This document shows, one piece after another, positions 10,611 to 58,610 of a stretch of DNA of 64,000 bases. The position numbers and the translations under genes were made by a program. Position 1 is the stretch's first letter. Every line of letters begins with the position of its first letter. Below the pieces are notes generated by a model that was not told the origin of the DNA, did no database searches, and worked only from the letters and a program-made list of their open reading frames with translations. The DNA is taken from positions 20 through 64,019 of the forward strand of contig MGUG01000044.1 of NCBI GenBank assembly GCA_001799845.1, in the 5' to 3' direction. The DNA is from Elusimicrobia bacterium GWC2_64_44. Its GTDB lineage: Bacteria > Elusimicrobiota > Elusimicrobia > Elusimicrobiales > UBA9959.

Positions 10611-10612
10611 AT

Positions 10613-10645: not shown

Positions 10646-10664
10646 CATGGTTTATGGAACTGCT

Positions 10665-14209: not shown

Positions 14210-14252
14210 GTGCCCTTGGACCCCTATACCGCTGGGCCCTTTGGCCCGGGCC

Positions 14253-14293
14253 GCAAAAAACCCGCCGGTAAAACCAGGCCGCCTACCGGGCGG
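14253..14293 (-). terminator. Rho-independent terminator after island gene E
   Basis: Minus strand CCGCCCGGTA-loop-TACCGGCGGG followed by TTTTTT. The stem is 9 bp with one bulge. Confidence 0.5.
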
Positions 14294-14441
14294 ACCCGGA
14301 GGAAAGTTCCGCAAAAAACGCGTTCGATGAGATGCGCACTGTGTTGCCTAAGTTTTTTAACACCGGAACTATCCTCCGAACAGGCTTTAACCGCGGGCTT
14401 AAGAAAACGCAGCAAACTTAAACCGCCGCCGCAGGGTGGCT

Positions 14442-15950: not shown

Positions 15951-16035
15951 ATAACCTCCATTGGCGAACTGCGCCGCTGGAAAAACTCCGTACACCTATT
16001 TAACGCCTTAAAATCCGCTTCCCGTTACGTCCGGT

Positions 16036-16060
16036 GCCGCCGGGCTTTAAACCCGGCGGC
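16036..16060 (-). other. Perfect 9-bp GC hairpin between island genes D and E (no T-run)
   Basis: GCCGCCGGG-CTTTAAA-CCCGGCGGC in the 136-nt D-E spacer. Could act as an mRNA stabiliser, processing site or attenuator. Confidence 0.4.
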
Positions 16061-16086
16061 AGCCGCTCTACCCCTCAAAAGACCGC

Positions 16087-17619
<1,533 letters not shown>

Positions 17620-17644
17620 AACGCCTCCCAAATATCCCTCGAAA

Positions 17645-19111
17645 CTATATACCGCTCATGATACCGCCAACAGACGACAGGCCGCTGCCGATAGACGACA
17701 GCGTGCCGCCAGCCGAACCCAGTACGCCGGGGGTAGTGACGCTGGTGGCGGGCGTCGTGCCGGAAGCCGCGGTGGTAGTAGTGGTGCTGCCCGCGCCACC
17801 TGCGTCGGAGCAGGCGCCGCCCAGGGCCTTTATGGCCTCGAGCATCAGCATCACACCGGTCAGGATGTAGATGCCGCCCATCATCTTCTGGTCGAACTTG
17901 CTGTACATCGCGAAACCGGCCATGATAACGGTGATAGCCTTAATGATGGCGAAGATGGCCGCTGCGGCCGCCAGCGCGGCGAAGATGACCTTGCCCCACG
18001 GGCCGCACATGTTGCCGATCTTGGAGAAGAGCTTGGCGAGCAGGATGGCGCCCAGGGCCCACATCATGCCGTTCATGGCCTTGTCTTCTTCGGCCTGCCA
18101 GGGGTCCACGTCCTCGGGCTTAGGCACCTTGGGGGGCGTGTACTCGTTGGAGCTCAGGCTGGGGTCGTTGCCCTTGAGGCCCGCGCCGTTGGACACGCCA
18201 GCGCCGCCCAGGCCCGCGCCGGCCGCGGGAGACCCGCTGTCGCCGCCGCTGGTCTCGCCGGTGAAGGCTTCGGTGGCGCTGGTGCGCGCGCCCGCGCCGT
18301 CGGCCGAGTAGGCCGCCTTGGCGCCCATCTTGCCGGCGAACTTGGCCTGGCCGTAAGCGCCCTTCTTATTGACGTTCGGAACCGCGTACTTAGGAGAGCT
18401 CTTGACCCGCGCCGCCGAGGCGGTCATGGCCGAGGTCTTGCCGGCGTTGGCCTGGGCCGGGGCCCTGTAAACAGGCTGGAACTGGGCGCCTATGCCGCCG
18501 GCCAGGCCGGCGCCGCCCTGCAGTTTGGGCATGGAGGACCCGCCGCCCGCGCCGCCGCCCTTGCTGCCGAAGCCGGCGTTAGCCTGCAGTTTGGGGCCGC
18601 CCGCGGCCGCCCCGCCCATGGCGGCGTCGCCGCCGGGAGCCGAAGGAGCCTCGGCAGAAGCGTCGGCGGAGGAATTGGCGGGATCGCCGGCCTCCGCGGA
18701 ACCGCTGCCCTCGCCGCCCTCGCCGCCGAGGCCGAGCCCGTCTTTCTTGGCCTGTTCCTTGAACATGTCGAGGGTTGAGGAAGCCGCGGCGGAAGCGTCG
18801 CGCGACTGCGCCCGCTCGACGCTGGCCCGGGAAGCCTCTTCTTCTATGTAAGTGTTCTGGAAGAGGTCGGGGTTATAAACCGGCTTGGAGGAGGGGCCCA
18901 CGAAGTTGTAGACCACGCCCACGCCCGCGGCAAGCGTAGCGCCGCCGAGCACCATGCCCAGTATGCCGGCTTTGCTGGCGAAAAGACCCGCGAGGCCGCC
19001 GCCGGAACCCAGCCCGGAGGAGGCGCCGCCGCCCACGACGGACGAGCCGCCGCTGCCGAAGAGCCCGCCTACGCCGGCTTTCTTTTCTTTTTTCTCGTTA
19101 TAATCGTTCAT
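17645..19111 (-). CDS. Island protein C: N-terminal anchor, G/S/A-rich loop, polytopic C-terminal membrane domain, Thr/Ser-rich tail; paralog of D
   Basis: An ATG follows the RBS GGGAGG (TTGGGAGGAGTTATGAACGA). MNDYNEKKEKK, TM ILGMVLGGATLAAGVGVVYNFV, motifs SSTLDMFKE, SSMPKLQGGAG and NDPSLSSNEYTPPKVPKPEDVDPW, then hydrophobic helices. Confidence 0.75.
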   Translation of the reverse strand: MNDYNEKKEKKAGVGGLFGSGGSSVVGGGASSGLGSGGGLAGLFASKAGILGMVLGGATLAAGVGVVYNFVGPSSKPVYNPDLFQNTYIEEEASRASVERAQSRDASAAASSTLDMFKEQAKKDGLGLGGEGGEGSGSAEAGDPANSSADASAEAPSAPGGDAAMGGAAAGGPKLQANAGFGSKGGGAGGGSSMPKLQGGAGLAGGIGAQFQPVYRAPAQANAGKTSAMTASAARVKSSPKYAVPNVNKKGAYGQAKFAGKMGAKAAYSADGAGARTSATEAFTGETSGGDSGSPAAGAGLGGAGVSNGAGLKGNDPSLSSNEYTPPKVPKPEDVDPWQAEEDKAMNGMMWALGAILLAKLFSKIGNMCGPWGKVIFAALAAAAAIFAIIKAITVIMAGFAMYSKFDQKMMGGIYILTGVMLMLEAIKALGGACSDAGGAGSTTTTTAASGTTPATSVTTPGVLGSAGGTLSSIGSGLSSVGGIMSGI

Positions 19112-19136
19112 AACTCCTCCCAATTTAAATACGGGG

Positions 19137-20075
19137 CTAGACAGCGGCGCCGAGGGGCCCGAAGACGGCGCCCAGGGCCATCTTCAGCACCATCTGTATT
19201 ATCATCATCTTTATCTGCTTCTTCATCTCTTCGCTTTCATCGGTAGCGTCCTCCGGCTTGGAGGGCGGGGTGATCTTGGTCTTGCTCAGGCTGGGATCGT
19301 TCTTCTTGAGATCCTGGGCGGTCTGGCCCATCTGCAGGCCGGCCAGCGCGGTGTTCTGCTCCATCTGGCCGTTGAGGTTCTCGCCGGTGGGGCCCTTGGC
19401 CGAGTTGGCGAAGGCCGAAGCCGCCCCGCCCTTGGCCTGGTCCATGTTGCCGGTCTTCACGGCGGACTCGCTCTTCTGGGCGCTGTTGCCGAGCATGGCC
19501 ACCAGGGAATTCTTTTTGTCCACCGCGGCCGGCTTCAGGTCGGCTTTGGTCGTGGGGGCGAACTCGGCCTTCTGGGCGCCGGAGCCGAAGAACTTGTTAT
19601 GCATGCCGCCGGCCGTCATGGAATTGGAGTTGCCGCCGGTGATGGAGGCCGCTGAGGCCAGCTTGCCGCCCTTGGGGCCAGCGGCCGAAGGGGCGCCGGC
19701 GGAGCCGGAAGGAGGCGGCGCCACGGGAGCGGAGGCCGAAGCGTCGGAAGAGGCGGCGGCGTCCGCGGTCTCCTCTTCGAGGGGGCCTGACTGGAAGAGG
19801 GAGGAAGCTATGTTCTCGCCGGAGGTGGCGGGGTTGTTTATCATCTCGCCGGAGAGCGGGGAACCGGGGGCGCCGCCCTCGGAAGAGATGTCGCTGCCCA
19901 GCATGCCGATGTCGGCCACCTTGGAGCGGAACGGGTTGCCGGCCGAAACGTTAGAATCCAGAGAGGAGCCGCTCATCAGGGGGAGGCCTATCCAGAGCGC
20001 GAGCATAATGACCGCCACAGTGCCGCCGATAGCATACTGCGTCGACTTGCTCTTTTTGTTTTGGAATTTCATCAT
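19137..20075 (-). CDS. Island protein B: N-terminal TM, S/A/G-rich loop, single C-terminal hydrophobic helix; related to C/D
   Basis: 312 aa. MMKFQNKKSKS, then TM GGTVAVIMLALWIGLPL. Motif KKNDPSLSKTKITPPSKPED, then MMIIQMVLKMALGAVFGPLGAAV. Confidence 0.7.
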   Translation of the reverse strand: MMKFQNKKSKSTQYAIGGTVAVIMLALWIGLPLMSGSSLDSNVSAGNPFRSKVADIGMLGSDISSEGGAPGSPLSGEMINNPATSGENIASSLFQSGPLEEETADAAASSDASASAPVAPPPSGSAGAPSAAGPKGGKLASAASITGGNSNSMTAGGMHNKFFGSGAQKAEFAPTTKADLKPAAVDKKNSLVAMLGNSAQKSESAVKTGNMDQAKGGAASAFANSAKGPTGENLNGQMEQNTALAGLQMGQTAQDLKKNDPSLSKTKITPPSKPEDATDESEEMKKQIKMMIIQMVLKMALGAVFGPLGAAV

Positions 20076-20173
20076 AACCCCGCCTCTTTATCCCGTTCGC
20101 CGCACCCAAAATAACTTTAAACTTTTCCTGACACAGCCCCCGGGGCGTTCAGGTCAAAGTTGATTACAGTGAT

Positions 20174-20202
20174 GTTATAGCAGACAAAAGTTGACTTGTC
20201 AA
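20174..20202 (-). promoter_or_regulatory. Sigma70-type promoter upstream of island gene B (TTGACA-17-TATAAC, extended -10 TGc)
   Basis: Minus strand TTGACAagtcaacttttgtcTGcTATAAC. Shares the 12-nt block TTTTGTCTGCTA with the gene A promoter. Confidence 0.55.
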
Positions 20203-20224
20203 GGGCACCGCTCACAGCCGGCCC

Positions 20225-21475
20225 TTACTTCGGCTTCTCCGTCACCAGCAGGTCCATGACATTTCCTTTCTCGTCATAGGTGACCTTATCATTATAAGAG
20301 ATAACAGTGCCGTCAGCGTTGGTCTGCTCTCCCTTGAATTCGCAGGTGAAAGTGGGCGGCGGCCCCTGGTTGACGGTAATGGCCCGGCTGGAGTCCTTGT
20401 ACTTGTCCCCGCCCTCGGTGGTGCAGCCCTGCCCGCAGGTCACATCGTTTATGGAATTCTGCACACCCTCCGGCAGCTGGTCCATGCCATTGCCGGTGCC
20501 GGTGCCGGTGCCAGCTCCGGTGCCGGTGCCGGCGCCCGTGCCGGTGCCGCCCTTGCCCATGGCGTCTTCCGCAGCTTTGATCGCGGCCGCGGCGGCTTCT
20601 TTCTTCATATCAGCTTCGGCCTTGTCTTTGGCGGACTGCTGAACCTTGGCGTCCTCGCCCAGGGCTTTCTTGGTGCCGTCCTCGTCCTTCACAGGGTTGC
20701 TTACCTCGGTAGTTTTCAGGCCGCCCTTCTTATCCATCTTCAGGTCGGCTATGTCGCCGCTCTTGATCTTGTCCAGGTTCACCAGGCCGCTCTTGTAGGA
20801 CATGTCGCCGCCGCCGCGGTTGCTGCCGCTGCCCAGGCCGAAGCTCTGGTTCCATTTGGCGCTGGCGGTCATGGCCGAGCCGGAGCGGAGGCCTTCGCCC
20901 AGCAGCGCCCGCGTATTCTTCAGGGTAGCCAGCGTGCCTTTGCCTTCGCCGCCGCCGGCGCCGGACTGGGATTTATTGGAAATCGAGGTGGTACCGGCCG
21001 CCGAGCCTTCGCCGAACCTGGTAGCCGAGCCGGCGGACTTGGAGCCGCCGCCGCCCCCACCGGCCAGGCCGGAGCCCCCGCCGCCCTGCATCTTGGGCAC
21101 CACGGCAGGAGAGGCGGACCGGGAAGAACTGCCGGAGGCCGAGGCCGCCGGGGCTTTGTCCATCCAGTCGGACATGTCGGGGTTGGTGGCCGCTATCCCC
21201 AGCTCGTCCAGCGGCAGGCCGCGGCTGGCGTTGCGGGCCAAGGCCGCTTCGGAAAGCTTGGGTTCATCTTCCGGAATGACGCCCATGGACTTGAAGAAAG
21301 AAGTCACGCCTTCCCTGGCGGCGCTGCCGTAAGTGAAGTTCTGGTTCTTGCCGGCCCTGGTCAGGTCGTTGGAACCCTGCACGATGAAGAAGAGGAAGAT
21401 GCCGCCGCCGGCGAAAAGGAAGGCCAGCACTGAAACTATCAGCGTCTTCCTCCGGTTGCTGGAATTGTCCTGCAT
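20225..21475 (-). CDS. Island protein A: N-terminal TM anchor, G/S/A-rich disordered region with (GT)n tract, small 4-Cys C-terminal domain; no family recognised
   Basis: Preferred start is MQDNSSNRRKTLIVSVLAFLFAGGGIFLFFIV. Has the VVPKMQGGGGSGLAGGG motif and a GTGTGAGTGTGAGTGTGTGNG tract. C-terminus ...VTCGQGCTTEGG...FTCEFKGEQTNADGTVISYNDKVTYDEKGNVM. Confidence 0.7.
   Translation of the reverse strand: MQDNSSNRRKTLIVSVLAFLFAGGGIFLFFIVQGSNDLTRAGKNQNFTYGSAAREGVTSFFKSMGVIPEDEPKLSEAALARNASRGLPLDELGIAATNPDMSDWMDKAPAASASGSSSRSASPAVVPKMQGGGGSGLAGGGGGGSKSAGSATRFGEGSAAGTTSISNKSQSGAGGGEGKGTLATLKNTRALLGEGLRSGSAMTASAKWNQSFGLGSGSNRGGGDMSYKSGLVNLDKIKSGDIADLKMDKKGGLKTTEVSNPVKDEDGTKKALGEDAKVQQSAKDKAEADMKKEAAAAAIKAAEDAMGKGGTGTGAGTGTGAGTGTGTGNGMDQLPEGVQNSINDVTCGQGCTTEGGDKYKDSSRAITVNQGPPPTFTCEFKGEQTNADGTVISYNDKVTYDEKGNVMDLLVTEKPK
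20489..20549 (-). repeat. Coding hexanucleotide (GGTGCC)n repeat in gene A encoding (GT)n
   Basis: TGCCGGTGCCGGTGCCGGTGCCAGCTCCGGTGCCGGTGCCGGCGCCCGTGCCGGTGCC. In frame. Confidence 0.7.
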
Positions 21476-21570
21476 AACGGCCCCCTGTCTGTATATGAGC
21501 AAAAAATAGATTCCCGTTTTTCACCCTTCCCTTGGCCGGGAAACTGAAAAAGCAGGTTTCTTACACTTAG

Positions 21571-24329: not shown

Positions 24330-25985
24330 CTAAACCCACATCGTGCCGTCTTCGGACCCCTGCGTGTCGCCGCCGTCATCGGGATCTTCTCCCTGCTGGT
24401 CTTCTGCAGGGGTCTCGGGCGGGGCGGCCGGCTTGGGCATCTTGATGGTCTCGCCGAAGGAGACCGTGTAGGGAACCCATTTCTTATCGACGTATTTCAG
24501 CGACAGCTGCACCCTGGCTCCGTCGGCCGTGTGCATGGTGATGTAGCCCATCTTGATCTCGTGGTCGGCGCAGACCTCCCTGGCCTTGCTGCAGGGCGTG
24601 AACAGCATGTCGGTCATGCCGCCGTACTGGTTCTCTACCTGCCGCAGGAAGGTGTGCACTTCGGTCTTGAGCTCCTTCTTGCGGTCCGCTGAAAGTTTGG
24701 AGAACTTCTCCGGGTCAGGCTTTTCCTCAGGCTGCTCCTCTCCGTCGGCCAGCGCCATCTTCAGCTGGGGCGGCTTGATAAGGGCGCCGGAGCGCAGCTG
24801 CGCCGCCGGCGGCTTTGCCGCGGCGTCCTCCTCCCTGATAAAACTGGTCTCGGCACCCTTCTGGCGCTCGTTCATCAGCGTCTTCAGGAAGTCCGGCTCT
24901 TCTTCCGCCGGAGGCGCGGCGGCGGCCGTGACCACGGCTCCGCGGGAGGAGGAGGGCCGAAAATTCCAGCCGGAAGACTTGGAGGAGTCGGAAGAGGAAG
25001 CGTCCTTAGTGTCCTTAGCGTCCTTCGCGTCCTTCCCGCCGGCCGCCGCGTCGCCGCTCTTGCCGTCGGCCCCCACTTCCTTGGCGGCGGAAGCCGCGGG
25101 CACGCCGCCGCCGCCGGCGGCAGAAGCGCCGGCCGCGGCCGCCGCGGAGGCGCCGCCCGACATCTTGGAATTATAGCTGCCCTCGGCGCCGGTGCGGGCC
25201 TGCTCCGACGCGCCGTTCAGGTCGACCGCGCCCTTCTGGCCGGGCATCTCGGACAGGCTGCCGCCTTTTCCCGGCTTCTCGCCCTGGGTCAACGGATTGG
25301 AAAACGGTCCGTCGGGAGAGCCGCCGGAAGGCAGGGAGGCCAGCTGCGGGCCGGCTGCGTCCTGCTTGCCGCCCTTGCGGCCGGGATACTTTACCCAGTC
25401 GCCGGAGGCGTCCTCCACAGAGGGGCGGGCGGGCCTGGGAGCGCGGCCCGCGGCCGCCTCTTCCCCGGCGCTTTCCTTTGCGGAAGCCTTGGGCGCAGAG
25501 CCGCCGCCGGAAGGGAGGCCGTCGTCGCCGCCGCCCCCGCCGCCGGAACTGCCCCAGGAGCCGCCCGAGGAACCGCCGAAGCCGCCGAAGCCGCCGCCCG
25601 AAGAGGCGGAGGCGCCGGTACCCTTGCCGTAGTTGCGGTTATAGAAATCCTCGAAAGGGTCTTTCTCGTCGGCCTCTTCGCCGGGCGCGTCCTGGCCGGC
25701 GGAAGCTGTCAGCGGCCCGGCCGCGGGCGCGTCGTCGCCCCAGGAAAAGAGATCGTCCACCAGGCCGCCGGTCTTGTCGGCTATGCTCTGTGCCCCGCGC
25801 TTGAAGTTGGCGGCCAGGCCCGGCTCGGGCGGCGGCTCCGGCGCTTTGCGCGAGCCGAAGCCGTACTCCATGCCGCGGACCTGGCGCTTGGCCGTGCCCA
25901 CGTGGGCCACGGCAAAGAAGCTGGCGACCAGCATGGCGCACAAGCCCAGGACTATCATGTGCGTAGGCTGTAAAGTGTTCTTCAT
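24330..25985 (-). CDS. Island-like protein G: N-terminal TM anchor, ~400 aa G/S/A/P/D-rich disordered region, ~120-aa folded C-terminal domain; no family recognised
   Basis: Preferred start is MKNTLQPTHMIVLGLCAMLVASFFAV. Contains GGGFGGFGGSSGGSWGSSGGGGGGDD and KDAKDAKDTKD tracts. The C-terminal part reads ...HTFLRQVENQYGGMTDMLFTPCSKAREVCADHEIKMGYITMHTADGARVQLSLKYVDKKWVPYTVSFGE. Confidence 0.65.
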   Translation of the reverse strand: MKNTLQPTHMIVLGLCAMLVASFFAVAHVGTAKRQVRGMEYGFGSRKAPEPPPEPGLAANFKRGAQSIADKTGGLVDDLFSWGDDAPAAGPLTASAGQDAPGEEADEKDPFEDFYNRNYGKGTGASASSGGGFGGFGGSSGGSWGSSGGGGGGDDGLPSGGGSAPKASAKESAGEEAAAGRAPRPARPSVEDASGDWVKYPGRKGGKQDAAGPQLASLPSGGSPDGPFSNPLTQGEKPGKGGSLSEMPGQKGAVDLNGASEQARTGAEGSYNSKMSGGASAAAAAGASAAGGGGVPAASAAKEVGADGKSGDAAAGGKDAKDAKDTKDASSSDSSKSSGWNFRPSSSRGAVVTAAAAPPAEEEPDFLKTLMNERQKGAETSFIREEDAAAKPPAAQLRSGALIKPPQLKMALADGEEQPEEKPDPEKFSKLSADRKKELKTEVHTFLRQVENQYGGMTDMLFTPCSKAREVCADHEIKMGYITMHTADGARVQLSLKYVDKKWVPYTVSFGETIKMPKPAAPPETPAEDQQGEDPDDGGDTQGSEDGTMWV

Positions 25986-26133
25986 AGGATCCCTCTGTGC
26001 GCGGGGGCCGTCCCTCCGCAAGGATAGTATAGACGCTTTTTGCGCTTTTCGCCAGTCCCCCCCTCTGATTATCCGTACGGGGCACGGGCGGCGCTACTTC
26101 GTAATTTGATAATATATTTACAGGGTAGGCCCC

Positions 26134-30100: not shown

Positions 30101-30170
30101 TATAATTCAGTTACCGGCGATGATGTCCGCCGCCCCGGCCGCCCGGGGGAACCGCCCGCAGGGGCTGATG

Positions 30171-30205
30171 ACCTCTACCCCACAAGGTAGAGGTCTTTGT
30201 TTTTA
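30171..30205 (+). terminator. Rho-independent terminator after dctP
   Basis: GACCTCTACC-CCACAA-GGTAGAGGTC followed by TTTGTTTTT. Confidence 0.8.
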
Positions 30206-30217
30206 TACGGAGCTGCT

Positions 30218-31351
30218 ATGGAACCTGACAAGATACCTGTTATAGCGGGGCTGCTGATCTTCGCAGCGAGCGTCCTGAGCCTGCGGCTGGGCCTCTCGGT
30301 GGCCATCTTCGAAATACTGCTGGGGGTCGGCGCGGGGCAGTTCGGCCTGCGGGCCGAAGAGTGGATGGTCTATATCGCCGGCTTCGGCGGCATAGTGCTC
30401 ACGTTCCTGGCCGGGGCCGAGGTGGACGTGAAGCTGCTCAGGGACAATTTCCGCGGCGCCGCCGTCGTAAGCCTCGCCTCTTTCGCCGCGCCGCTCGCGG
30501 CCGGCTACCTCTTCTGCCGCTATCTCGCCGGCTGGAGCCCCCAGGCCTCCCTGATCACAGGCATTGCGCTCTCCGAAACCTCCCTGGCGGTGGTGTATTC
30601 GGTGCTGGCTGAAACCGGCCGCTCCGGCAACGCTGCCGGCAAACTGCTGATGGCCTGCACCTTCCTCACCAACACCCTCACCGCGCTGGCGCTCAGCCTG
30701 GTCTTCCTCAAGCCCAACCTGTACACCCTCCTGTTCCTCACCGTCTCCGGCCTCTTCCTCGCCTTCGCCGGACGCTTCTCCCTGGGCCTTCTCCGCGACC
30801 CGGCCTTAGCCGGCAAGGTGGCCGAGCCGGAGATAAAATATATCTTCTTCATCCTGCTCGCTTTCGTCTACCTGGCCGACCTCGGCTCCAGCCAGGCCAT
30901 ATTGCCGGCCTTTATCTTCGGCCTGCTGATGAGCCGCCACTTCAAAACGCAGCGCAGGACCGCCGGCGTGAAGACGCGCCTGCGCACCGTGGCCTACGCC
31001 TTCATCACCCCGTTCTTCTTCATCGTGGCCGGGCTGAAGGTCTCCCTCGCCGCGCTGTGGGCGGCCCCGCTGCTGTTCGCCGGACTGTTCGCGGCCAAGC
31101 AGCTCTCCAAGTTCGCGGGCGTGCATTTCCTGATGAAGAAGTATTTTCCCACGGCCGGGATGTACTCCACGCTGCTGATGTCCACCGGCCTCACCTTCGG
31201 CCTGATGGCCGTGCTGGCGGGCGTCCGGGCGGGCTATCTCGACGACGCGCAGTACTCGGTACTGACCGGGGTGCTGATAGCCAGCGCCGTGCTGCCCACC
31301 TTCGCGGCCCAGCGCTGGTTCGCGCCAAAAGAAGACGAGGACTTGGCCTGA
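30218..31351 (+). CDS. Cation:proton antiporter (CPA family, Kef/NapA-like membrane domain)
   Basis: Polytopic. The ATG at 30218 (MEPDKIPVIAG...) is preferred because the track start at 30197 lies inside the terminator. Typical Na+/H+ exchanger helices. Confidence 0.8.
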   Translation: MEPDKIPVIAGLLIFAASVLSLRLGLSVAIFEILLGVGAGQFGLRAEEWMVYIAGFGGIVLTFLAGAEVDVKLLRDNFRGAAVVSLASFAAPLAAGYLFCRYLAGWSPQASLITGIALSETSLAVVYSVLAETGRSGNAAGKLLMACTFLTNTLTALALSLVFLKPNLYTLLFLTVSGLFLAFAGRFSLGLLRDPALAGKVAEPEIKYIFFILLAFVYLADLGSSQAILPAFIFGLLMSRHFKTQRRTAGVKTRLRTVAYAFITPFFFIVAGLKVSLAALWAAPLLFAGLFAAKQLSKFAGVHFLMKKYFPTAGMYSTLLMSTGLTFGLMAVLAGVRAGYLDDAQYSVLTGVLIASAVLPTFAAQRWFAPKEDEDLA

Positions 31352-34077: not shown

Positions 34078-34881
34078 TCAGCCGGGCAGGCGCACCGCGC
34101 CTATGCCCATGCCGTCCTGCGCCCTGTCCTTCACGTACTCGGCGCGCGTGCCCGGCAGCTGGTAGTCGCGCCAGAAGCGGCTGACCTCCACGCCCGGCCG
34201 CGCCGCGCAGGGCTGTATATCATGAAAAGCTATCACGCCGCCCGGCCGCACGAAACCGGAATAGCGCTCGAAGTCCGCCTTGACCCCGTCGTAGCTGTGA
34301 TCCCCGTCGATAAAGAGCAGGTCCAGCCGCCGGCCGCCCAGGGCCTCCGCGAAGCGCCGCAGCGACTCGGGCGAGCGCGAATCCCCGTCTATCAGTTCAA
34401 GTCTGCGGCCGGGGCCTTTCATGGCCCGCAGCAGCGGGCGCCGCCAGAAAGCTTTATTAAAGGAGGACAGCTCCCCGCTGAAAGCGCCGCCCGGCAGGTC
34501 GAGGCTTATCACCAGCGCGTCGGGGGCCGCGGCGGAGCAGAGCAGGGCCAGCGTGCCGCCCTGCGCCCGGCCTATCTCCGCCACCGCGCGCGGGGGCTCG
34601 GGAAAACTCTTGATAAAGGGCAGGATCTCCTCGCGGTGCTGCAGCGCGCCGGCCAGCCAGGCGCCCGTGCCGAAGACGAAGTCAGCGGCCGCTTCGGGGC
34701 CCCGCGCCGCCAGCGCCCGCAGGCGCAGGAGGCAGTAGAAGTAATACCCGGCGGGCAGCAGCGCCAGCAGTACCGCCAGAACGGCGGCCGCGGCCCACTG
34801 GCCCGCCAGCGCCGCGGCCAGCGCCGCCAGCAGCAGCGCCAGCGCGGCCTGTATGCCCCGTACCAGGAACTTTACCGCCAC
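34078..34881 (-). CDS. Membrane-anchored class I SAM-dependent methyltransferase
   Basis: N-terminal hydrophobic helices. Motif I VAEIGRAQGGT. LLFIDGDHSYDGVKADFE...GGVIAFHDI. Confidence 0.65.
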   Translation of the reverse strand: MAVKFLVRGIQAALALLLAALAAALAGQWAAAAVLAVLLALLPAGYYFYCLLRLRALAARGPEAAADFVFGTGAWLAGALQHREEILPFIKSFPEPPRAVAEIGRAQGGTLALLCSAAAPDALVISLDLPGGAFSGELSSFNKAFWRRPLLRAMKGPGRRLELIDGDSRSPESLRRFAEALGGRRLDLLFIDGDHSYDGVKADFERYSGFVRPGGVIAFHDIQPCAARPGVEVSRFWRDYQLPGTRAEYVKDRAQDGMGIGAVRLPG

Positions 34882-34893
34882 TTGAATTTGGCG

Positions 34894-35424
34894 TCAGGCC
34901 TGCGCGCCGCCGGCGGGCTGAGTGCTGTCCACGAACACGCGGGTGGAAAGATCCTTGTCCAGCATGAAGAGGCCTTCTTTGGAGTCGCCGATGAGCTTGA
35001 GCTTGTCGGCTATCTCGGAAGAGTTAGCTTCCTCCTCCACCTGCTCGTCCACGAACCAGTTGAGCATGCTGGCGGTGGCGTGGTCGCGCTCGGCCAGAGC
35101 TATGTCCATTATATTGTTGATCATCGCGCTGACTTTCTGCTCGTGCTCGTAGGCAGCCTCGAACATGGCGAGCGGGCTCTTCCATTCGGTGGTAACGCCC
35201 TCGATGGCGGGCATAACGGAGTGGCCGCCCCGCTCCAGCACGAACTTGTAGAACTTCATGGCGTGGGTCATCTCCTCCTGCGCCTGCACGTACAGCCAGT
35301 TGGCCAGGCCCTTCAGGTTCAGCTCGGTGCACTTGGCCGACATGCCCAGGTACAGGTAGGCCGAATACAGCTCGGCGTTGACCTGCTTGTTGATGGCTTC
35401 TTCCACTTTTTTGTTGATCTTCAT
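34894..35424 (-). CDS. ftn: Ferritin
   Basis: 176 aa. INKQVNAELYSAYLYLGMS...AQEEMTHAMKFY...YEHEQ ferroxidase-centre residues. Confidence 0.9.
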   Translation of the reverse strand: MKINKKVEEAINKQVNAELYSAYLYLGMSAKCTELNLKGLANWLYVQAQEEMTHAMKFYKFVLERGGHSVMPAIEGVTTEWKSPLAMFEAAYEHEQKVSAMINNIMDIALAERDHATASMLNWFVDEQVEEEANSSEIADKLKLIGDSKEGLFMLDKDLSTRVFVDSTQPAGGAQA

Positions 35425-35544
35425 GAAGTTACCTCCTGACTTTTCTTAAAGCGTTCCGGGCCGGGCCCGACGCCTTTATAATACAAAAATAGCCGCGCGC
35501 TTTCCCAAGAGGCGGCTCAGGCGGCATTTTGGTATCATAGACGC

Positions 35545-41794: not shown

Positions 41795-42520
41795 ATGCGC
41801 GGCAAGATACTGCTGGTTGACGACGACAAAGCGCTTCGTACCGATTTCACGCTCTGGTACGAGGAATACGACATCACGCCCGTAGGCAGCGCCGCGGAAG
41901 GCCTGGCCCTCCTCAAGAAACCCAACGAATTCGACCTCGTCATAATGGACGTGCAGATGCCGGGCATGGACGGCCTGACCGCGCTGGAGCGCATCAAGGC
42001 CGCGGCTCCCGGCCGCAGCGTCATCATCATGACCGGCTACAGTTCCAAGGACGCCGCGATCCGCGCGCTGAAGGCCAAGGCCGACAACTTCATCGAGAAG
42101 CCCTTCGACCTCAAGACCATGCGCGCCGCCATAGAGCGGGAGCTGTCGCGCAGCCGCGGCGAGGCCAGCCCGGAAGAGATGGACCTGCCGGGCAAGGTGG
42201 ATCACGTCCGCTGGTTCCTCGAGGGCAACTGCTTCAAGAAGATCTCGCTCGACGACGCGGCCGCCACGGTCTACCTGACCCCCAAGTACCTCAGCCGCGT
42301 GTTCAGGGAGCAGACCGGCATGGGCTTCAACGAGTACCGCCTGAAGGTCAAGATGGCGCAGGCCAAGAAACTGCTGAAGACCACCGGCGTCACCGTAAAG
42401 CAGGTCTCCGCCAAGCTAGGATACGCCAACGCCGAGTCCTTCATCCGCCAGTTCGAAAAGATAACTGGCACCTCCCCGTCCGCCTACCGCCGCGGCCAGC
42501 GGCCCCCGAAAAAACGATAG
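41795..42520 (+). CDS. Response regulator with AraC-type HTH output domain
   Basis: REC domain with LLVDDD, DLVIMDVQMPGMDG and EKP. The C-terminal part has YLSRVFREQTGMGFNEYR...GYANAESFIRQFEKITGTSPSAYRR. Confidence 0.85.
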   Translation: MRGKILLVDDDKALRTDFTLWYEEYDITPVGSAAEGLALLKKPNEFDLVIMDVQMPGMDGLTALERIKAAAPGRSVIIMTGYSSKDAAIRALKAKADNFIEKPFDLKTMRAAIERELSRSRGEASPEEMDLPGKVDHVRWFLEGNCFKKISLDDAAATVYLTPKYLSRVFREQTGMGFNEYRLKVKMAQAKKLLKTTGVTVKQVSAKLGYANAESFIRQFEKITGTSPSAYRRGQRPPKKR

Positions 42521-42554: not shown

Positions 42555-42583
42555 TTGTAACCGGCGGCCCCCGGGGCTATACT
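42555..42583 (+). promoter_or_regulatory. Sigma70-type promoter upstream of the REC-GspE gene (TTGTAA-17-TATACT)
   Basis: TTGTAA at 42555-42560, a 17-nt spacer and TATACT at 42578-42583, about 60 nt before the ATG. Confidence 0.45.
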
Positions 42584-42646: not shown

Positions 42647-44752
42647 ATGGAAAAGCATGCTCTGACAAATCCGGGCGCGGCCATCGACTCGACGTACGGC
42701 GAGCCGCGCCCCAACATTCCGGCCCGGGTCCAGTCGCCCCCCGCCGCTGGACCCGCGCCGGCTGTTCTGCGGCAGCCGGTCCCCTCGAGGACGGTGCTGG
42801 TGGTGGACGACAACAAGGACTACAGGGAGCTGGTCAAGCACCTGCTCAGCGTCCACCACTACAGCGTCCTCGAGGCGGCCAACGGCCAGGAGGCGCTCTC
42901 TGTCATAGGCCGGCAGATGCCCGACCTGGTGCTGGTGGATTTCAACATGCCCAAGATGAACGGGTATGAGATGATACAGGAAGTCCGCAGCAATTACGAG
43001 ACCCGCAAGCTGAAGATCATCATGTTCACCGGCGCCACCAACCGGCAGCACCTGCGCTCGCTGAACATGGACATCACCGATTTCCTGGAGAAGCCGGTCT
43101 CCAACTCCAAACTGCTGGAGAGCATCTCCAAAGCTTTCGGCGGCGGCGCTCCCGCCGCGCCCCCCAAGCCCCAGCCCAGGCCGGAAGTCAGGCCAGAGGC
43201 CAGGCCCGTGCCCGCCCCCGAACCCGAGGTCCTGGAGCCCGAGCCGCCCGCGCTGGCCATAGAGCGCTTCGAGACCAGCGAGCCATCGGCCCGCCCCGAG
43301 GCGCGTTACACGCCGCAGGTGGAACTGCCCCCGGAGGCCCTGCAGCCTGAGCCCGAGGCGCCGCCTGAGCCGCAGGCCGAGCCCGAACAGCAGCCGATCA
43401 CCCTCCCCGAAGCGCCGTCCGAACCGGCGCCCGAAGCCGTCCCAGAAGCGGAAGCTGTCCCCGAGCCGGAAGCGGAAACCCCGGACATGGACCTTATGCT
43501 GGGCGAGGACAACGCCGAACTGGAGATCCTGGAGAGCGGCGCCCCCCGCAAGGAAGACAAGCAGGACGCCATAGGCCTGGAGAACCTCTCCCACGACTCC
43601 CCCCTCATACAGCGCGTCAACAAGATCCTGATGGCCGCGGTGGAGATGCGCGCCTCCGACATCCACATAGAGCCCTTCGAGAACAAAGTGATGGTCCGCG
43701 TGCGCGTAGACGGCGTGCTGCGCCTGCTGACCACGCTGCCCATCGCTATCCACCAGCGGCTGACCGCCCGCATCAAGATCATGAGCAGCCTGGTCATAAC
43801 CGAGCGCCGCCTGCCGCAGGACGGCCAGTTCCGCGTGCAGATCCGCGGCAACCGCATAGAGTTCCGCGTGAGCACCCTGCCGTGCATCAAGGGCGAGAAG
43901 ATCGTCATGCGCGTGCTGGGCCAGAGCAAGCTCAACAGCAGCCTCTCGCAGCTGACCCTGACGCCGCGCGAGCTGACCGCCGTGCAGGGCTCGCTGAAGA
44001 GCTCCAACGGGCTGGTACTGGTGACCGGGCCCACCGGCAGCGGCAAGACCACCACGCTCTACACCATGATCAACGTGCTCAACAAGCCCGACGTCAATAT
44101 CATGACGGCCGAAGACCCCGTGGAGTACGAGGTCCCCAACGTCAACCAGGTGAAGATCCTCTCCAGCATCGGCCTCACCTTCGAGTCCACCCTGCGCGCC
44201 TTCCTGCGCCAGGACCCGGACATCATGCTCGTCGGCGAGATCCGCGACATGGAGACCGCCGAGATAGCCATCAAGGCCTCCATCACCGGCCACCTGGTCT
44301 TTTCCACGCTGCATACCAACAGCGCGCCGGCCACCATAGTGCGCCTCACGCACATGGGCGTGGCGCCATACCTGGTGGCGGCCAGCGTGCGGCTGGTGGT
44401 GGCCCAGCGCCTGGTGCGCACGCTTTGCCAGCACTGCCGCGGCGCGGGCGCCGTGACCCAGGAGGACAGGCAATTCCTGACCGATAAAGAGATAGCCTCC
44501 CTGAAGACCGTTTACCACCCGGTGGGCTGCAAGCACTGCAGCGGCGGCTACTCCGGGCGCAGGGCCGTTTTTGAGATCATGCCGGTGGAGACTTCGGCCA
44601 TGAGGCAGCTCATCACCACCAGCAACGACGTGGACAAACTGACCGCGCTGGCCGTCAGCGAGGGAATGACCTCGCTGCGCCAGTCGGCCCTTGACGCGGT
44701 CCGGCGGGGAGAGACCTCCCTGCAGGAAGCGTTCAAGATCATGATGGGGTGA
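42647..44752 (+). CDS. GspE/PilB-family secretion ATPase with an N-terminal response-regulator receiver domain
   Basis: 701 aa. REC domain with VVDDN, DLVLVDFNMPKMNG and EKP. A Pro/Glu-rich linker of about 130 aa. The ATPase part has RASDIHIEP, LPQDGQF, Walker A GPTGSGKTTT, AEDPVEY, LRQDPDIMLVGEIRD and the tetracysteine CQHC...CKHC. Confidence 0.9.
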   Translation: MEKHALTNPGAAIDSTYGEPRPNIPARVQSPPAAGPAPAVLRQPVPSRTVLVVDDNKDYRELVKHLLSVHHYSVLEAANGQEALSVIGRQMPDLVLVDFNMPKMNGYEMIQEVRSNYETRKLKIIMFTGATNRQHLRSLNMDITDFLEKPVSNSKLLESISKAFGGGAPAAPPKPQPRPEVRPEARPVPAPEPEVLEPEPPALAIERFETSEPSARPEARYTPQVELPPEALQPEPEAPPEPQAEPEQQPITLPEAPSEPAPEAVPEAEAVPEPEAETPDMDLMLGEDNAELEILESGAPRKEDKQDAIGLENLSHDSPLIQRVNKILMAAVEMRASDIHIEPFENKVMVRVRVDGVLRLLTTLPIAIHQRLTARIKIMSSLVITERRLPQDGQFRVQIRGNRIEFRVSTLPCIKGEKIVMRVLGQSKLNSSLSQLTLTPRELTAVQGSLKSSNGLVLVTGPTGSGKTTTLYTMINVLNKPDVNIMTAEDPVEYEVPNVNQVKILSSIGLTFESTLRAFLRQDPDIMLVGEIRDMETAEIAIKASITGHLVFSTLHTNSAPATIVRLTHMGVAPYLVAASVRLVVAQRLVRTLCQHCRGAGAVTQEDRQFLTDKEIASLKTVYHPVGCKHCSGGYSGRRAVFEIMPVETSAMRQLITTSNDVDKLTALAVSEGMTSLRQSALDAVRRGETSLQEAFKIMMG

Positions 44753-47016
44753 TCTATATGGAAACGCCCGACCAGGAAACACTTAACCAGGACGGCGACC
44801 CGTACGCGCCCGAATACGGCAAGTACGAGCTGTCCTACCCGGAGCTCTGCTCCGAGTTCCTGACGGCGCTCGCGAAGTCCGTCAAGAACGCGGCCCTCTA
44901 CGGCCTGGCCCACCCGCTGGTGATAGAGGCCGTGCGCAAGGACGCCTCGCTGCTGGGCCTGATCTTCAGGGCCAAGAAAGAAGAGTCGCTGACCGTCTCG
45001 TTCATGAACGACGCCTGGCTCTTCAACGAGACCGCCGTCCCGGCGGTGACGCAGGAATCGCAGAACATGAACGCCTTCTTCAAGGCCCGCCGCATTACCG
45101 GGCTCACCTTCCTGGCCGGCATCCAGTCTTTCGAGCTCGCCGCTCTCTGTGAATTCCTCGCCGCTCCGGCCAAGAACCGCCCCGATAACTTCATGGAGGA
45201 GTTTTTCGCAGGCAAAGGGGTCACCAACATCAAAGCCGAGGCCGTGCGCTACGTCAAAGAAGGCGGCTTCGCCAGGCAGGACCCCTACAGGGCCGCCCAG
45301 GAGGCGCACGAACAGGCCCGACAGCAGGCTCCCGCGCGGGAGCCGGTCAGAGCGGCCCAGGCGGCGCGCCCTGCCCCGCTGCAGCAGCGGCCCGCGCCAG
45401 CGCCGCAGCCCCGCCCGGCGCCACAGGCCCGGCCGGCCCCGGCCCCCCAGCCCCGGCCGCAGCAGCCCGCGCAGCAGCGCCCGGCGCGCTTCGAAGAATT
45501 AAAAAGAGCGGCGGCGCAGCCTGTACAGGCCGCCATCCAGCAGGCTCCCAGGCCGGCCGCTGCCCCCCAGCGGCCTGCCCTCCAGCCTGCGCCGGCCAAG
45601 CCGGCCCCCACGGCGGCCGCCGCGCTATTCGGCGCGGGGACAGGCTCCGGCGGCGGTTCCGGCAAAGGCAGTGGCAGGGGGTCCGGAGGCGCGGGAGACG
45701 CGCTCTTCGGCTCGCCGGCGCCCGCGCCTGCGCCCTCCCCGGAACCCGAGCCGGCCGCGCAGCCCAGCGCGCTGGCCGCCATGAGCTTCGGCGGCATCCT
45801 GAAGGGCCTGGTGGAATCCGCCGTGAAGGATCCCAAGGACCGCGTGCGCGCCTACGAAGACGCCATGAAGATGATCAAGGATACGATGGAGCAGCAGATA
45901 GCCGACTCCACCAAGGCGATAGCGGCCGAGAAAGAGCAGGCCATCAAGACCCGCAGCCGCACCGAGCAGGTACTGTCCCACGTGGCGGAAGGCAAGGTCA
46001 TCGTGGACAAGCAGGGCAAGATCCTGATGATGAACCCGGCCGCCGAGGAGATAGCCGGCACCAAGCTCGCCGACGCCGTGGGCCGGCATATCTCGGAGCA
46101 CATGCGCCCCGGGGAGCATTTCCTGACCCTGTCCAAGGACATGGACCTCACCGGCAACAACCAGCTCTCCGGCGAGGTGAACCAGCAGGGCGACGAGCAC
46201 ATGGGCCGCGCGCTGCGCCGCTCCATGGCTTTGCTGGAAGACGACGAGGGCCGCGTGCTGGGCACCTACACCACGCTGCCAGAGATCAGCAAGTACCGGG
46301 AAGCCCAGAAACTGCAGGAGGAGTTCCTGTCGCGCATCACGCACGACCTGCAGTCGCCGCTGTCCTCCATCACCTCGGCGCTGGAGATGCTCACCGACGC
46401 GGCCGGCAACAAGCTGGACACTACGGAGAACAAGTTCCTGGACATCAGCATCCGCAACAGCCACCGCCTGAGCCAGATGATAAAAGGCATCCTGGACTTC
46501 TCCAAGCTGCAGTCGGGCAAGCTGGACATGCACCCGCAGCCCACGCTGATGGCGCCGATAGTGGCGGAGGCGACCGAAGGCCTGATGCCCTGGGCCAAGA
46601 CCAAGAACATCACGCTGAGCGTCCGGCCCGTACCGGAAGACCTCTCCGCGCTGGCGGACGCGCCGCGCATAGTGCAGGTGCTGACCAACCTGATCTCCAA
46701 CGCCATCAAGGCCACGCCGGAGGGCGGCACCGTCACCGTGGCCGCCGCGTGCAACCCAGGCGAAGAGGGCGGCGTGCTGTTCGGCGTGCGCGACACCGGG
46801 CACGGCATTCCCAAGGAAGACCTGGACAAGCTCTTCCACAAGTTCGTGCAGCTCTCGTCCTACGACACGCAGGAGGGCGTGGGCCTGGGGCTTGCGATAG
46901 TCAGCGATTTCGTGAAGCTGCACGGCGGCAGGGTGTGGGTGGAGAGCGAAGAGGGCAAAGGCGCCACCTTCTACTTCACGCTGCAGCCCGCCGATGCGTC
47001 CTGCCCCGTTTTCTAA
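44749..47016 (+). CDS. Cytoplasmic sensor histidine kinase (unknown N-terminal domain, P/A/Q-rich linker, PAS, HisKA, HATPase_c)
   Basis: The GTG at 44749 overlaps the upstream stop (an alternative ATG lies at 44758). H-box ITHDLQSPL, N-box NLISNAIKAT, G-boxes RDTGHGI and GVGLGLAI. PAS-like GKVIVDKQGKILMMNPAAEEI. No TM helix seen. Confidence 0.85.
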   Translation: MIYMETPDQETLNQDGDPYAPEYGKYELSYPELCSEFLTALAKSVKNAALYGLAHPLVIEAVRKDASLLGLIFRAKKEESLTVSFMNDAWLFNETAVPAVTQESQNMNAFFKARRITGLTFLAGIQSFELAALCEFLAAPAKNRPDNFMEEFFAGKGVTNIKAEAVRYVKEGGFARQDPYRAAQEAHEQARQQAPAREPVRAAQAARPAPLQQRPAPAPQPRPAPQARPAPAPQPRPQQPAQQRPARFEELKRAAAQPVQAAIQQAPRPAAAPQRPALQPAPAKPAPTAAAALFGAGTGSGGGSGKGSGRGSGGAGDALFGSPAPAPAPSPEPEPAAQPSALAAMSFGGILKGLVESAVKDPKDRVRAYEDAMKMIKDTMEQQIADSTKAIAAEKEQAIKTRSRTEQVLSHVAEGKVIVDKQGKILMMNPAAEEIAGTKLADAVGRHISEHMRPGEHFLTLSKDMDLTGNNQLSGEVNQQGDEHMGRALRRSMALLEDDEGRVLGTYTTLPEISKYREAQKLQEEFLSRITHDLQSPLSSITSALEMLTDAAGNKLDTTENKFLDISIRNSHRLSQMIKGILDFSKLQSGKLDMHPQPTLMAPIVAEATEGLMPWAKTKNITLSVRPVPEDLSALADAPRIVQVLTNLISNAIKATPEGGTVTVAAACNPGEEGGVLFGVRDTGHGIPKEDLDKLFHKFVQLSSYDTQEGVGLGLAIVSDFVKLHGGRVWVESEEGKGATFYFTLQPADASCPVF

Positions 47017-57449: not shown

Positions 57450-58610
57450 ATGACGCGCGCTGAAGAACTGGAAAACCGCTTGAAATTGCTGGTCAATTTC
57501 GGCGGCTCCGTTTCCAAGGAGACCAACCTCAGCAAACTGCTCGAGCTCATCGCCGAGCAGGTCAGGACCATTCTGGTCTGCGACCGCTGCAGCGTCTTCA
57601 TCATGGACCGGCAGACCAACGAGCTCTGGTCCAAGGTGACGCTGGGGCTGCAGCACACCGAGATCCGCGTCCCCCTCGGCAAGGGCATCGTGGGCCACGT
57701 GGCCTCCTCGGGCACGACGCTCAATATCCAGGACGCCTACCAGGACAACCGCTTTACCCACGACATAGACCGCCTGACCGGCTACCGCACGCGCAGCATC
57801 CTCGCCGTGCCGCTCAAGAACGTCAGCGGCCACATCATAGGCGTGTTCGAGGCCATGAACAAGGGGAGCGGCCCCTTCAACGTGGACGACGAGGGCATAC
57901 TGCAGCTCATCAGTTCGCTCGCGGCCTCGGGCATCGAGAACGCCCAGCTCTACGAGAGCCTCTCCAAGTCCCAGCTCGAGACCATTTACCGCCTGGCCGT
58001 CACGGCCGAGTACCGCGACCAGCAGGACACGGCCATCCACCTGCGCCACATCAGCGAGTATTCCGCGCTGATAGCGCAGGGTCTGGGCCTGCCCGAGCGC
58101 GAGATAGAGAATATCCGCTACGCGAGCCCCCTGCACGACATCGGCAAGGTGGGCATCGCCGACGCCATCCTGCTCAAGCCGGGCAAGCTGACGGCGGAAG
58201 AGTTCGAAGAGATGAAGAAGCACACGGTCTACGGCGCCAAGATCCTCTGCAACGCCGAGAGCCACCTGCTGCAGGTGGCCTGCAAGGTGGCGGGCTCGCA
58301 CCACGAGCGCTTCGACGGCACCGGCTACCCGGCCCGCCTGAAGGCCGAACAGATCCCGATCTACGCGCGCATCGTGTCGGTGGCGGACGTGTTCGACGCG
58401 CTGTGCGCGCAGCGCGTCTACAAGCCCAAGTGGGACCCGCAGAAGGCGCGCGAGTACATCATGGAAGAGAACGGCAAGGCCTTCGACCCGAACGTGGTGC
58501 AGGCCTTCGACCGGGTCTTCGGCGAGATCCTGAAGATGCAGGCCCTGGGCGACGGTAAGAGCACTATCATCCCCGGCATCACCAGGGAAATGAACCGCCA
58601 CAACTTCTGA
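57450..58610 (+). CDS. GAF-domain HD-GYP phosphodiesterase (c-di-GMP)
   Basis: The GAF region has CSVFIMDRQTNELWS. The HD-GYP region has HDIGKVGI and HHERFDGTGYP. Confidence 0.85.
   Translation: MTRAEELENRLKLLVNFGGSVSKETNLSKLLELIAEQVRTILVCDRCSVFIMDRQTNELWSKVTLGLQHTEIRVPLGKGIVGHVASSGTTLNIQDAYQDNRFTHDIDRLTGYRTRSILAVPLKNVSGHIIGVFEAMNKGSGPFNVDDEGILQLISSLAASGIENAQLYESLSKSQLETIYRLAVTAEYRDQQDTAIHLRHISEYSALIAQGLGLPEREIENIRYASPLHDIGKVGIADAILLKPGKLTAEEFEEMKKHTVYGAKILCNAESHLLQVACKVAGSHHERFDGTGYPARLKAEQIPIYARIVSVADVFDALCAQRVYKPKWDPQKAREYIMEENGKAFDPNVVQAFDRVFGEILKMQALGDGKSTIIPGITREMNRHNF

Follow-up and report, generated by a model that had tools for sequence, protein, structure and literature searches.

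A Receiver Domain Fused to a PilB-like ATPase in Elusimicrobiota: A Pilus Extension Motor Probably under Two-Component Control

Introduction

How cells time the firing of the pilus extension motor is an open problem, and it is now studied by way of cyclic di-GMP (c-di-GMP) acting on MshEN domains and by way of separate CheY-like proteins, whose contacts with the motor protein PilB are weak and hard to trap. In MshE and the other MshEN ATPases, the N-terminal MshEN domain couples PilB, MshE or GspE to c-di-GMP (PMC5013675, PMC4624772). Among the CheY-like proteins, PATAN-REC regulators of Synechocystis (PixG, PixE, PixH and others) bind PilB1 in trans (bioRxiv 10.1101/2021.06.11.447907; PMC11181946), and DrdR and EmvR of Xanthomonas bring PilB under receiver control, also in trans (PMC13507683; PMC11973254). 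PilG and PilH are further CheY-like regulators that act on PilB/PilT in trans. Here, we describe a gene that joins a receiver (REC) domain and a PilB-like ATPase in one polypeptide. It lies in a stretch of 64,000 nucleotides (nt) from Elusimicrobia bacterium GWC2_64_44 (contig MGUG01000044.1), which we call the window.

An earlier note on this gene, made from the sequence alone, described a complete REC domain, a Pro/Glu-rich linker and a GspE/PilB ATPase with all of its motifs, and proposed that phosphorylation would gate the motor directly. The domain description is borne out by Pfam, by alignment of the receiver to CheY, Spo0F and PhoB and by the conservation of the ATPase motifs. Direct gating of the motor by phosphorylation would fit the gene arrangement described below. 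We consider it likely that the fusion is a type IVa-pilus-type extension ATPase (PilB class) under direct two-component control, with phosphorylation probably licensing the motor.

The closest described proteins are PilB and PilF of Myxococcus xanthus (3jc8), Geobacter (5tsg/5zfr/6olj) and Thermus (PilF, 5oiu/5it5). Their N2 and C-terminal core is 41–49% identical to that of the fusion, and the Walker A and B, Asp box, His box and Cys4 motifs are alike. The fusion differs in having a receiver and a disordered tether instead of MshEN/N1, and its gene lies outside any pilB-pilT-pilC cluster. As in MshE, an N-terminal signalling module of an extension ATPase would link a cellular signal to the motor; however, MshEN binds c-di-GMP non-covalently, whereas the fusion would use covalent phosphorylation by a dedicated kinase. 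The trans-acting CheY-like regulators resemble it in that a phosphorylatable receiver modulates a pilus extension motor, but they are separate PilB-binding proteins. In the fusion the receiver is in the same polypeptide, so that the receiver-to-motor stoichiometry is fixed at one receiver per motor subunit.

More distant comparisons are also instructive. In CheB, NtrC1/DctD and PleD/WspR, an enzyme or an oligomeric ATPase is controlled by a receiver, which either lifts an inhibition or promotes oligomerisation; here, the output is a PilB-type ATPase and the linker is long and disordered, not a defined helix. PilS-PilR, which is encoded beside pilB-pilT-pilC in one unfused relative (L062), likewise places a PAS kinase and a response regulator next to pilB. 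However, PilS is a six-transmembrane kinase and PilR a sigma-54 activator that acts on transcription only, whereas the kinase next to the fusion is soluble, the regulator is of the AraC type (OmpR type in some lineages) and the motor carries a second receiver of its own. The literature yielded no report of a receiver fused to a PilB/GspE ATPase, only of trans-acting regulators, although a passing mention in Galperin's 2006 response-regulator census is possible. The MshEN paper mentions MshEN-REC associations in general terms only. Well-characterised REC-fused relatives, a case that the earlier note had considered, were likewise not found in the literature.

Domain Structure of the Fusion Protein

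From N to C terminus, the fusion consists of a disordered tail, a canonical REC domain, a Pro/Glu-rich disordered linker and a full PilB/GspE-type ATPase core (Table 1). Pfam places Response_reg at amino acids (aa) 50–160 (E 1e-25) and T2SSE at aa 315–696 (E 1.5e-129). No MshEN or T2SSE_N (N1) match was found in the protein at E≤0.01, and the slot is taken by disordered low-complexity sequence; the earlier note was correct in saying that the usual N-terminal domain is replaced by a receiver. In an AlphaFold2 monomer model built with an 89-sequence alignment, the predicted local distance difference test (pLDDT) values are 93–98 in the receiver, which has the alternating beta-alpha pattern, mostly above 90 in the ATPase, and 43–58 in the first 41 residues and the linker; over the N-terminal extension (aa 1–48) they are about 40.

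The reading frame has a third-codon-position GC content of 0.89, like the real genes of the window (overall GC 65%), and its ATGGAAA start is kept in several species. An identical protein is called on groundwater-metagenome contigs (JGI 3300025309 Ga0209212_1000259, 110,598 bp; ENA ERZ27254739). The host is an uncultured groundwater bacterium of the phylum Elusimicrobiota.

Residues D54, D55, D98, T128, F146 and K149 of the fusion align with D12, D13, D57, T87, Y106 and K109 of CheY. In the alignment to CheY, Spo0F and PhoB, D54 and D55 form the acidic pocket, D98 is the predicted acceptor and F146 the aromatic switch, with T128 and K149 also present. Among 113 full-length homologues, D55 and D98 are retained in 112, Thr or Ser at position 128 in 111, and F146 and K149 in every one.

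Atypical receiver domains have a precedent in pilus biogenesis proteins such as TadZ/CpaE. By analogy, the receiver of the fusion could be a degenerate docking module that is never phosphorylated, in which case the kinase would signal solely to the AraC-type regulator. We give this reading hardly any credence. The five phospho-chemistry residues and the aromatic switch are intact even though the homologues are only 47–100% identical overall, and the kinase remains linked to the fusion even in lineages without the AraC-type regulator. The pseudo-receiver check proposed in the earlier note was negative, and we reject this candidate: the residues align to those of CheY and are conserved in 111–113 of the 113 homologues. 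On the helix-4/strand-5/helix-5 face of the receiver, R133, L136, F146, L147, N153, L156 and L157 are invariant or nearly so, and this face may be an interaction surface.

Pro makes up 26% and Glu 21% of the linker, which is about 140 aa long (a count over 135 aa gives 35 Pro, 29 Glu and 20 Ala), much as the earlier note had described it. Within the family it may be as short as 27 aa or as long as 178 aa, with a median of 107, and the Pro/Glu/Ala composition is constant. A flexible tether behaves in this way, and a structured coupling element does not. A tether that is long, disordered and variable in length argues against rigid allosteric coupling.

The ATPase Core and Its Closest Relatives

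The ATPase motifs are a Walker A GPTGSGKTT (aa 461–469), an Asp box TAEDPVEY, a Walker B GEIRD and a His box GHLVFSTLHTN. All of them, together with the Cys4 site, are invariant across the 89 aligned homologues, and the four cysteines of the zinc motif are retained in 113/113. This tetracysteine motif is present in PilB and GspE and absent in PilT.

The earlier note had left the class at GspE/PilB. The superfamily assignment stands, and it can be refined to PilB-like by sequence scores, by fold and by the genes found next to the fusion in related genomes. The NCBIfam scores are 520.8 bits for PilB (model positions 150–560), 486.3 for GspE, 412.9 for TfpB, 253.7 for ComGA and 183.6 for PilT. 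Against sequences from the Protein Data Bank, the scores are 354–366 bits for Myxococcus and Geobacter PilB, 319–322 for Vibrio GspE, about 300 for Thermus PilF and about 118 for PilT. Foldseek superimposes the predicted core on PilF/PilB chains with template-modelling (TM) scores of 0.91–0.94 (~2 Å) and on GspE chains with scores of 0.57–0.82.

The nearest unfused relatives, found in a scan of GTDB species genomes, are about 565 aa long, are 44–53% identical to the fusion over the ATPase only, and come from Nitrospirota, Aquificota, Gemmatimonadota, Fibrobacterota and others. Two of these (L062 and L042) have the layout MshEN-T2SSE. L062, the only unfused relative scanned for neighbours, lies in a pilB-pilT-pilC-pilS-pilR cluster.

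A neighbour-joining tree was made from 205 ATPase domains (388 columns, 100 bootstraps). All REC fusions that lack MshEN form a single clade of 38 (bootstrap 69), which adjoins canonical PilB (Myxococcus, Geobacter and the PilF of Neisseria), and the two GspE references pair with each other away from it (bootstrap 100). The phylogeny that the earlier note had proposed as a check thus places the fusion clade beside PilB and the GspE pair elsewhere, but the joining nodes have bootstraps of 0–45.

In three divergent Elusimicrobiota lineages (L089, L094 and L097), a pilT gene lies immediately upstream of REC-pilB and runs 4 nt into it. A retraction ATPase beside the fusion is a need of a type IV pilus and not of type II secretion.

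One could still suppose that the fusion, as a GspE, drives a type II secretion system (T2SS) and that it is secretion that phosphorylation gates. The GspE model scores nearly as high as the PilB model, relatives of the fusion are publicly annotated as GspE/PulE-like, and a survey of type IV filaments reports T2SSs in many non-proteobacterial phyla (PMC6668835). However, PilB outscores GspE by sequence and by structure, the GspE references lie elsewhere in the tree, and the co-operonic pilT of the three lineages is a gene of which a T2SS makes no use. Furthermore, no gspF, gspL, gspD or pseudopilin gene is adjacent to the fusion, and the fusion has no N1 (N1E, GspL-binding) domain. We therefore regard the GspE reading as quite improbable; taken together, the sequence scores and the predicted fold indicate that the core is closest to the type IVa pilus extension motor PilB and not to GspE.

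Distribution of the Fusion and Other Receiver-ATPase Arrangements

A word-indexed search found the Response_reg plus T2SSE architecture in more than 100 clusters (at 90% identity), whose members are 47–100% identical; the named members are all metagenome-assembled genomes (MAGs) of Elusimicrobiota. When one genome per GTDB species was scanned, the full-length fusion was present in about 36 Elusimicrobiota species. The REC-linker-T2SSE fusion is a conserved family that is common in Elusimicrobiota and not a one-off.

An exhaustive search of representatives, in which the ranking favours REC-containing proteins, gave among its best 150 clusters (at 50% identity) 38 with the REC N-terminal to the ATPase, 45 with the REC C-terminal, 14 tandem double ATPases, 50 with the ATPase only and two others with multiple REC domains. 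Pfam resolves three receiver arrangements, REC-linker-T2SSE, REC-MshEN-T2SSE and MshEN-T2SSE-(zinc ribbon)-REC; one REC-MshEN-T2SSE member adds an Hpt domain, and the MshEN-T2SSE-REC type was found in MAGs of Mariprofundaceae and Omnitrophota. The last two arrangements (e.g., P0165, P0174, P0150 and P0156) resemble our fusion in that a REC is fused to a PilB-like ATPase, but they keep MshEN. The architecture is therefore less singular than the earlier note had implied: it is common in Elusimicrobiota, and two other combinations of REC with a PilB-like ATPase occur elsewhere.

The MshEN-retaining REC fusions fall outside the MshEN-less clade of the tree, with weak deep support. As to whether the MshEN-less family arose from REC-MshEN-T2SSE proteins, the tree separates the two, with deep bootstraps near zero, and a comparison of REC hidden Markov model scores between the architectures is biased by the way in which the representatives were selected. 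Receiver fusions to PilB-like ATPases are common in sequence space and form a broader, unremarked pattern, and the fusion described here is a conserved but uncharacterised form of a known motor, not a system of a new kind. PilB-like ATPases have a modular regulatory slot at the N-terminus, and several phyla have joined receivers to these enzymes, in at least three arrangements.

The MshEN-retaining forms are themselves diverse. P0150, P0156, P0152, P0165, P0174, P0192, P0143 and P0193 include MshEN-T2SSE-(double zinc ribbon)-REC, REC-MshEN-T2SSE and REC-MshEN-T2SSE-Hpt proteins, as well as proteins with three C-terminal receivers or with receivers at both ends.

The tandem forms (P0121, P0123 and P0126–P0142, 14 clusters, and P0122) carry two complete PilB-like cores in single polypeptides of about 1000 aa. 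Both halves of the tandem double ATPases fall in one clade of the tree (bootstrap 89), and in P0122 the two ATPase cores are joined by an N-terminal partial T2SSF (platform) domain. A hexamer could be built from three tandem chains.

The Regulator-ATPase-Kinase Cassette

In the window, the fusion gene is the second of three. The first encodes a REC-AraC regulator in which Pfam finds Response_reg at aa 5–114 (4.8e-26) and HTH_18/HTH_AraC at aa 156–233; a gap of 126 nt separates it from the fusion gene. The third, 5 nt downstream of the fusion, encodes the HisKA/HATPase_c histidine kinase to which the earlier note had already pointed.

Of the 36 Elusimicrobiota species loci, 28 have an ortholog of the AraC-type regulator immediately upstream of the fusion. 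In 30 loci the kinase ortholog follows the fusion directly, in four it lies one small gene further and in two it is missing, and so its linkage is kept in 34 of the 36. The small gene encodes a TPR protein in the annotated relatives L005 and L089, and a TPR gene lies in this position in two of the three pilT-linked lineages (L089 and L097). In more divergent lineages, the AraC-type regulator is replaced by an OmpR-type regulator or there is no regulator. The five loci with precomputed Pfam annotation have wholly different flanking genes and retain the cassette, and since the flanking genes vary between genomes, the cassette itself is the conserved unit.

The gap between the regulator and the fusion contains a sigma-70-like promoter (one of three matches in a 6 kb region, against 0.4 expected) and, abutting its -35 hexamer, a box of which the window has a single copy, where chance would give 0.03. 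In an alignment of the intergenic regions of 16 species loci, both hexamers, the ATG and the box are conserved, and the distance from the hexamers to the ATG is constant. The box-plus-promoter pattern accompanies the AraC-type regulator in about 25 of 28 loci and occurs in only one of the eight that lack this regulator. These observations make the box a candidate binding site of the AraC-type regulator, which would drive the ATPase-kinase operon. No second copy of the box, which might have marked further regulon members, was found in the window or in the retrieved loci, and Rfam detected no RNA elements, riboswitches included, in the 5' region of the fusion gene. The conserved cassette with its second, DNA-binding response regulator, the conserved promoter and the candidate operator imply that control is probably exerted on two levels, transcription and motor activity.

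The kinase lacks transmembrane segments. Its first ~170 aa form a domain that is conserved among the orthologs and that has no Pfam match and no sequence match in the Protein Data Bank; we regard it as a candidate new cytoplasmic sensor domain. It is followed by a Pro/Ala/Gln-rich low-complexity stretch of about 160 aa.

A Possible Mechanism

The simplest scheme is a branched two-component system. It begins with the cytoplasmic PAS kinase, which would sense an intracellular cue through its novel N-terminal domain, its PAS domain or both. The kinase would phosphorylate the REC-AraC regulator, which would probably activate the promoter of the ATPase-kinase operon and so raise the amounts of motor and kinase (positive feedback), and it would also phosphorylate D98 of the ATPase itself, which would probably license the hexameric motor. 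Such phosphotransfer from the downstream kinase to D98 is suggested by the conserved linkage of the two genes. As a net result, a single signal would make the cell both produce the extension motor and switch it on.

Known mechanisms in receiver-gated enzymes are relief of a tethered inhibition, as in CheB and NtrC1, and phospho-dependent dimerisation or recruitment, as in NtrC and PleD. In the fusion, phosphorylation of D98 could likewise release a tethered inhibitory contact, cause the receivers to dimerise or recruit the ATPase to the pilus platform. We lean slightly towards activation of the motor over inhibition, since a signal that both induces the motor and activates it makes for a coherent design.

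The main rival reverses the polarity. Phosphorylation might turn the motor off, or it might only relocate it, for example by releasing it from the platform so that PilT can retract the pilus, and the receiver would then be a brake or an address tag. PilB cores without N-terminal domains crystallise as hexamers (PDB 5tsg, 5it5) and may be constitutively competent, the co-operonic pilT of three lineages suggests an extension/retraction switch, and a long flexible tether fits recruitment or sequestration. However, should the same signal also lead the AraC-type regulator to activate the operon, the motor would be induced and inhibited at once, which would be an incoherent design, and we judge this alternative to be rather unlikely, though it is the strongest of those we have considered.

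Several results weigh against the reading that we prefer, a PilB-class extension motor licensed by phosphorylation. The fusion's PilB score of 520.8 bits is below the PilB equivalog cut-off (TIGR02538, 675.65), as its GspE score is below the GspE cut-off (630.25), and none of the PilB, GspE, TfpB, ComGA and PilT models of NCBIfam reaches its equivalog cut-off. The cut-offs are missed because the N-terminal part of the models (a third of the PilB model) is unmatched. The deep nodes of the neighbour-joining tree have near-zero bootstraps. The modelling proposed in the earlier note gave confident REC and ATPase domains, but the monomer is uninformative about how they dock, and since the tether varies from 27 to 178 aa, it implies no fixed geometry between them. 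A disordered tether is equally compatible with a role in localisation. Isolated PilB cores are active hexamers in published work. The receiver might just as well affect localisation alone, or have a negative effect.

The remaining point against it concerns the pilus itself. We scanned essentially all genes of the window with Pfam, searched its six frames for the prepilin motif with a regular expression, and ran tblastn with the PilC and PilT of L062 against the window and 41 Elusimicrobiota loci. Neither PilC/GspF, PilM-Q, a secretin, a prepilin peptidase nor a gene with a prepilin motif was found in the 64 kb window, which confirms the earlier note as to platform, secretin and pilin genes. 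The same machine genes, pilin included, are also missing from the ~18 kb of the source contig that were examined beyond the ends of the window and from the 10 kb around the fusion in the 41 Elusimicrobiota loci. As to other members of the group, pilins, PilD and pilus clusters have been reported in cultured and symbiotic Elusimicrobia (PMC8809381; PMC6668835), and PilT is widespread across Elusimicrobiota. Presumably, the fusion powers a type IV pilus whose genes lie in another part of the genome.

A further example of dispersed pilus motor genes in Elusimicrobiota was seen on a 2.76 Mb Elusimicrobia contig (L095, 10001..15943), where a pilT-pilT/pilU pair is followed by a protein with cyclic nucleotide-binding and GAF domains; a PilZ-domain protein is near, and there is no pilB.

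The pilus might also be one for DNA uptake. In this case, the fusion would power a competence pilus or pseudopilus instead of a motility or adhesion pilus, and the kinase would be a competence-inducing sensor. A ComEC gene is encoded in the same window (5245..7188), competence genes and pilins of Elusimicrobia have been reported to be conserved and expressed (PMC8809381), and the fusion matches the ComGA model with 253.7 bits. On the other hand, ComEC is 35 kb away among unrelated genes (recR, dnaX), the ComGA score falls far short of the PilB score and does not reach the model's cut-off of 300, and there is no competence pilin nearby. These points make a competence role improbable. The ComEC-type gene itself (Competence plus DUF4131, minus strand) adjoins recR and dnaX and is unlinked to the cassette.

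A more ambitious version of the preferred reading, a PilB-class motor licensed by phosphorylation, is one that we hold only tentatively. It supposes that one soluble kinase with an undescribed sensor domain runs a two-tier pilus switch, acting on the AraC-type regulator and on a receiver carried by every ATPase subunit, and that MshEN/c-di-GMP control has been exchanged for a phosphorelay. If true, this would be the first two-component system to control the motor of a type IV filament in cis. With the ratio of receiver to motor already set and the kinase pointed out, the natural fusion offers a simple in vitro system of three proteins and one promoter for following a signal through to the activity of a hexamer. 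The organisms are uncultured, the pilus genes are unlinked and receiver control of PilB is already a familiar idea, and these limit the significance of the finding.

Table 1. Features of the fusion gene, its cassette and the pilT-linked loci. Positions refer to the window unless a locus is named.
Feature	Position	Strand	Remarks
REC-AraC regulator	41795..42520	+	241 aa; first cassette gene; Pfam
Conserved upstream box, GGAWAAAAGTCARYA..AAA..GGGA..CCGCCAA	42522..42554	+	Abuts -35 hexamer; candidate operator
Sigma-70-like promoter, TTGTAA, 17 nt spacer, TATACT	42555..42583	+	Promoter scan
REC-linker-PilB-type ATPase gene	42647..44752	+	701 aa; ATG start
N-terminal extension, aa 1–48	42647..42790	+	Predicted disordered; mean conservation 0.2
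REC domain, aa 50–160	42794..43126	+	Pfam E 1e-25; pLDDT 93–98
D98 codon, predicted phospho-acceptor	42938..42940	+	Aligns with CheY D57; invariant in 89-sequence alignment
Pro/Glu/Ala-rich disordered linker, aa ~166–305 (~140 aa)	43142..43561	+	Occupies MshEN/N1 position
PilB/GspE-type ATPase core (N2 + C-terminal ATPase domain), aa 315–696	43589..44734	+	Pfam T2SSE
Walker A (P-loop) GPTGSGKT	44027..44050	+	Read from sequence; invariant in family
Tetracysteine zinc-binding motif C594, C597, C628, C631	44426..44539	+	Mark of extension-type ATPases
Cytoplasmic histidine kinase	44758..47016	+	N-terminal domain, Pro/Ala/Gln-rich stretch, PAS, HisKA, HATPase_c (Pfam)
Kinase N-terminal domain	44758..45273	+	First ~170 aa
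Locus L089	8925..11998		HD-GYP-like, pilT, REC-pilB, TPR, kinase
Locus L094	10001..13350		pilT, REC-pilB, kinase
Locus L097	10001..13101		pilT, REC-pilB, TPR, kinase

Other Features of the Window

A protein with GAF and HD_5/HD (HD-GYP-type) domains is encoded at 57450..58610 (+), as read by way of an annotated twin contig (L085), and in L089 an HD_5 protein is encoded directly upstream of pilT-REC-pilB. These neighbours hint that cyclic-nucleotide signalling may still touch the REC-pilB system.

Seven genes in one run on the minus strand (9651..21502), encoding proteins of 309, 1144, 516, 513, 491, 311 and 424 aa, have no Pfam match at E≤0.001, and the same is true of an eighth at 24330..26021 (-), which encodes 562 aa. 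Hydrophobic anchors at the N-terminus and tracts rich in Gly, Ser and Ala occur in several of the proteins, and two neighbours begin alike, with an N-terminal 'GGVMND..EKKEKK' sequence. The set may be an uncharacterised envelope or surface cluster.

The 405-aa open reading frame at 34222..35439 (+) is in all likelihood spurious. It has a third-position GC of 0.67, where real genes have ~0.88, it has no Pfam match, and it is antisense to methyltransferase and ferritin genes called on the public contig. Finally, Rfam identifies a fluoride riboswitch (RF01734) at 30107..30184 (+), with 45.3 bits, which exceeds the gathering score; it is directly upstream of a Na_H_Exchanger-family gene at 30197..31351.

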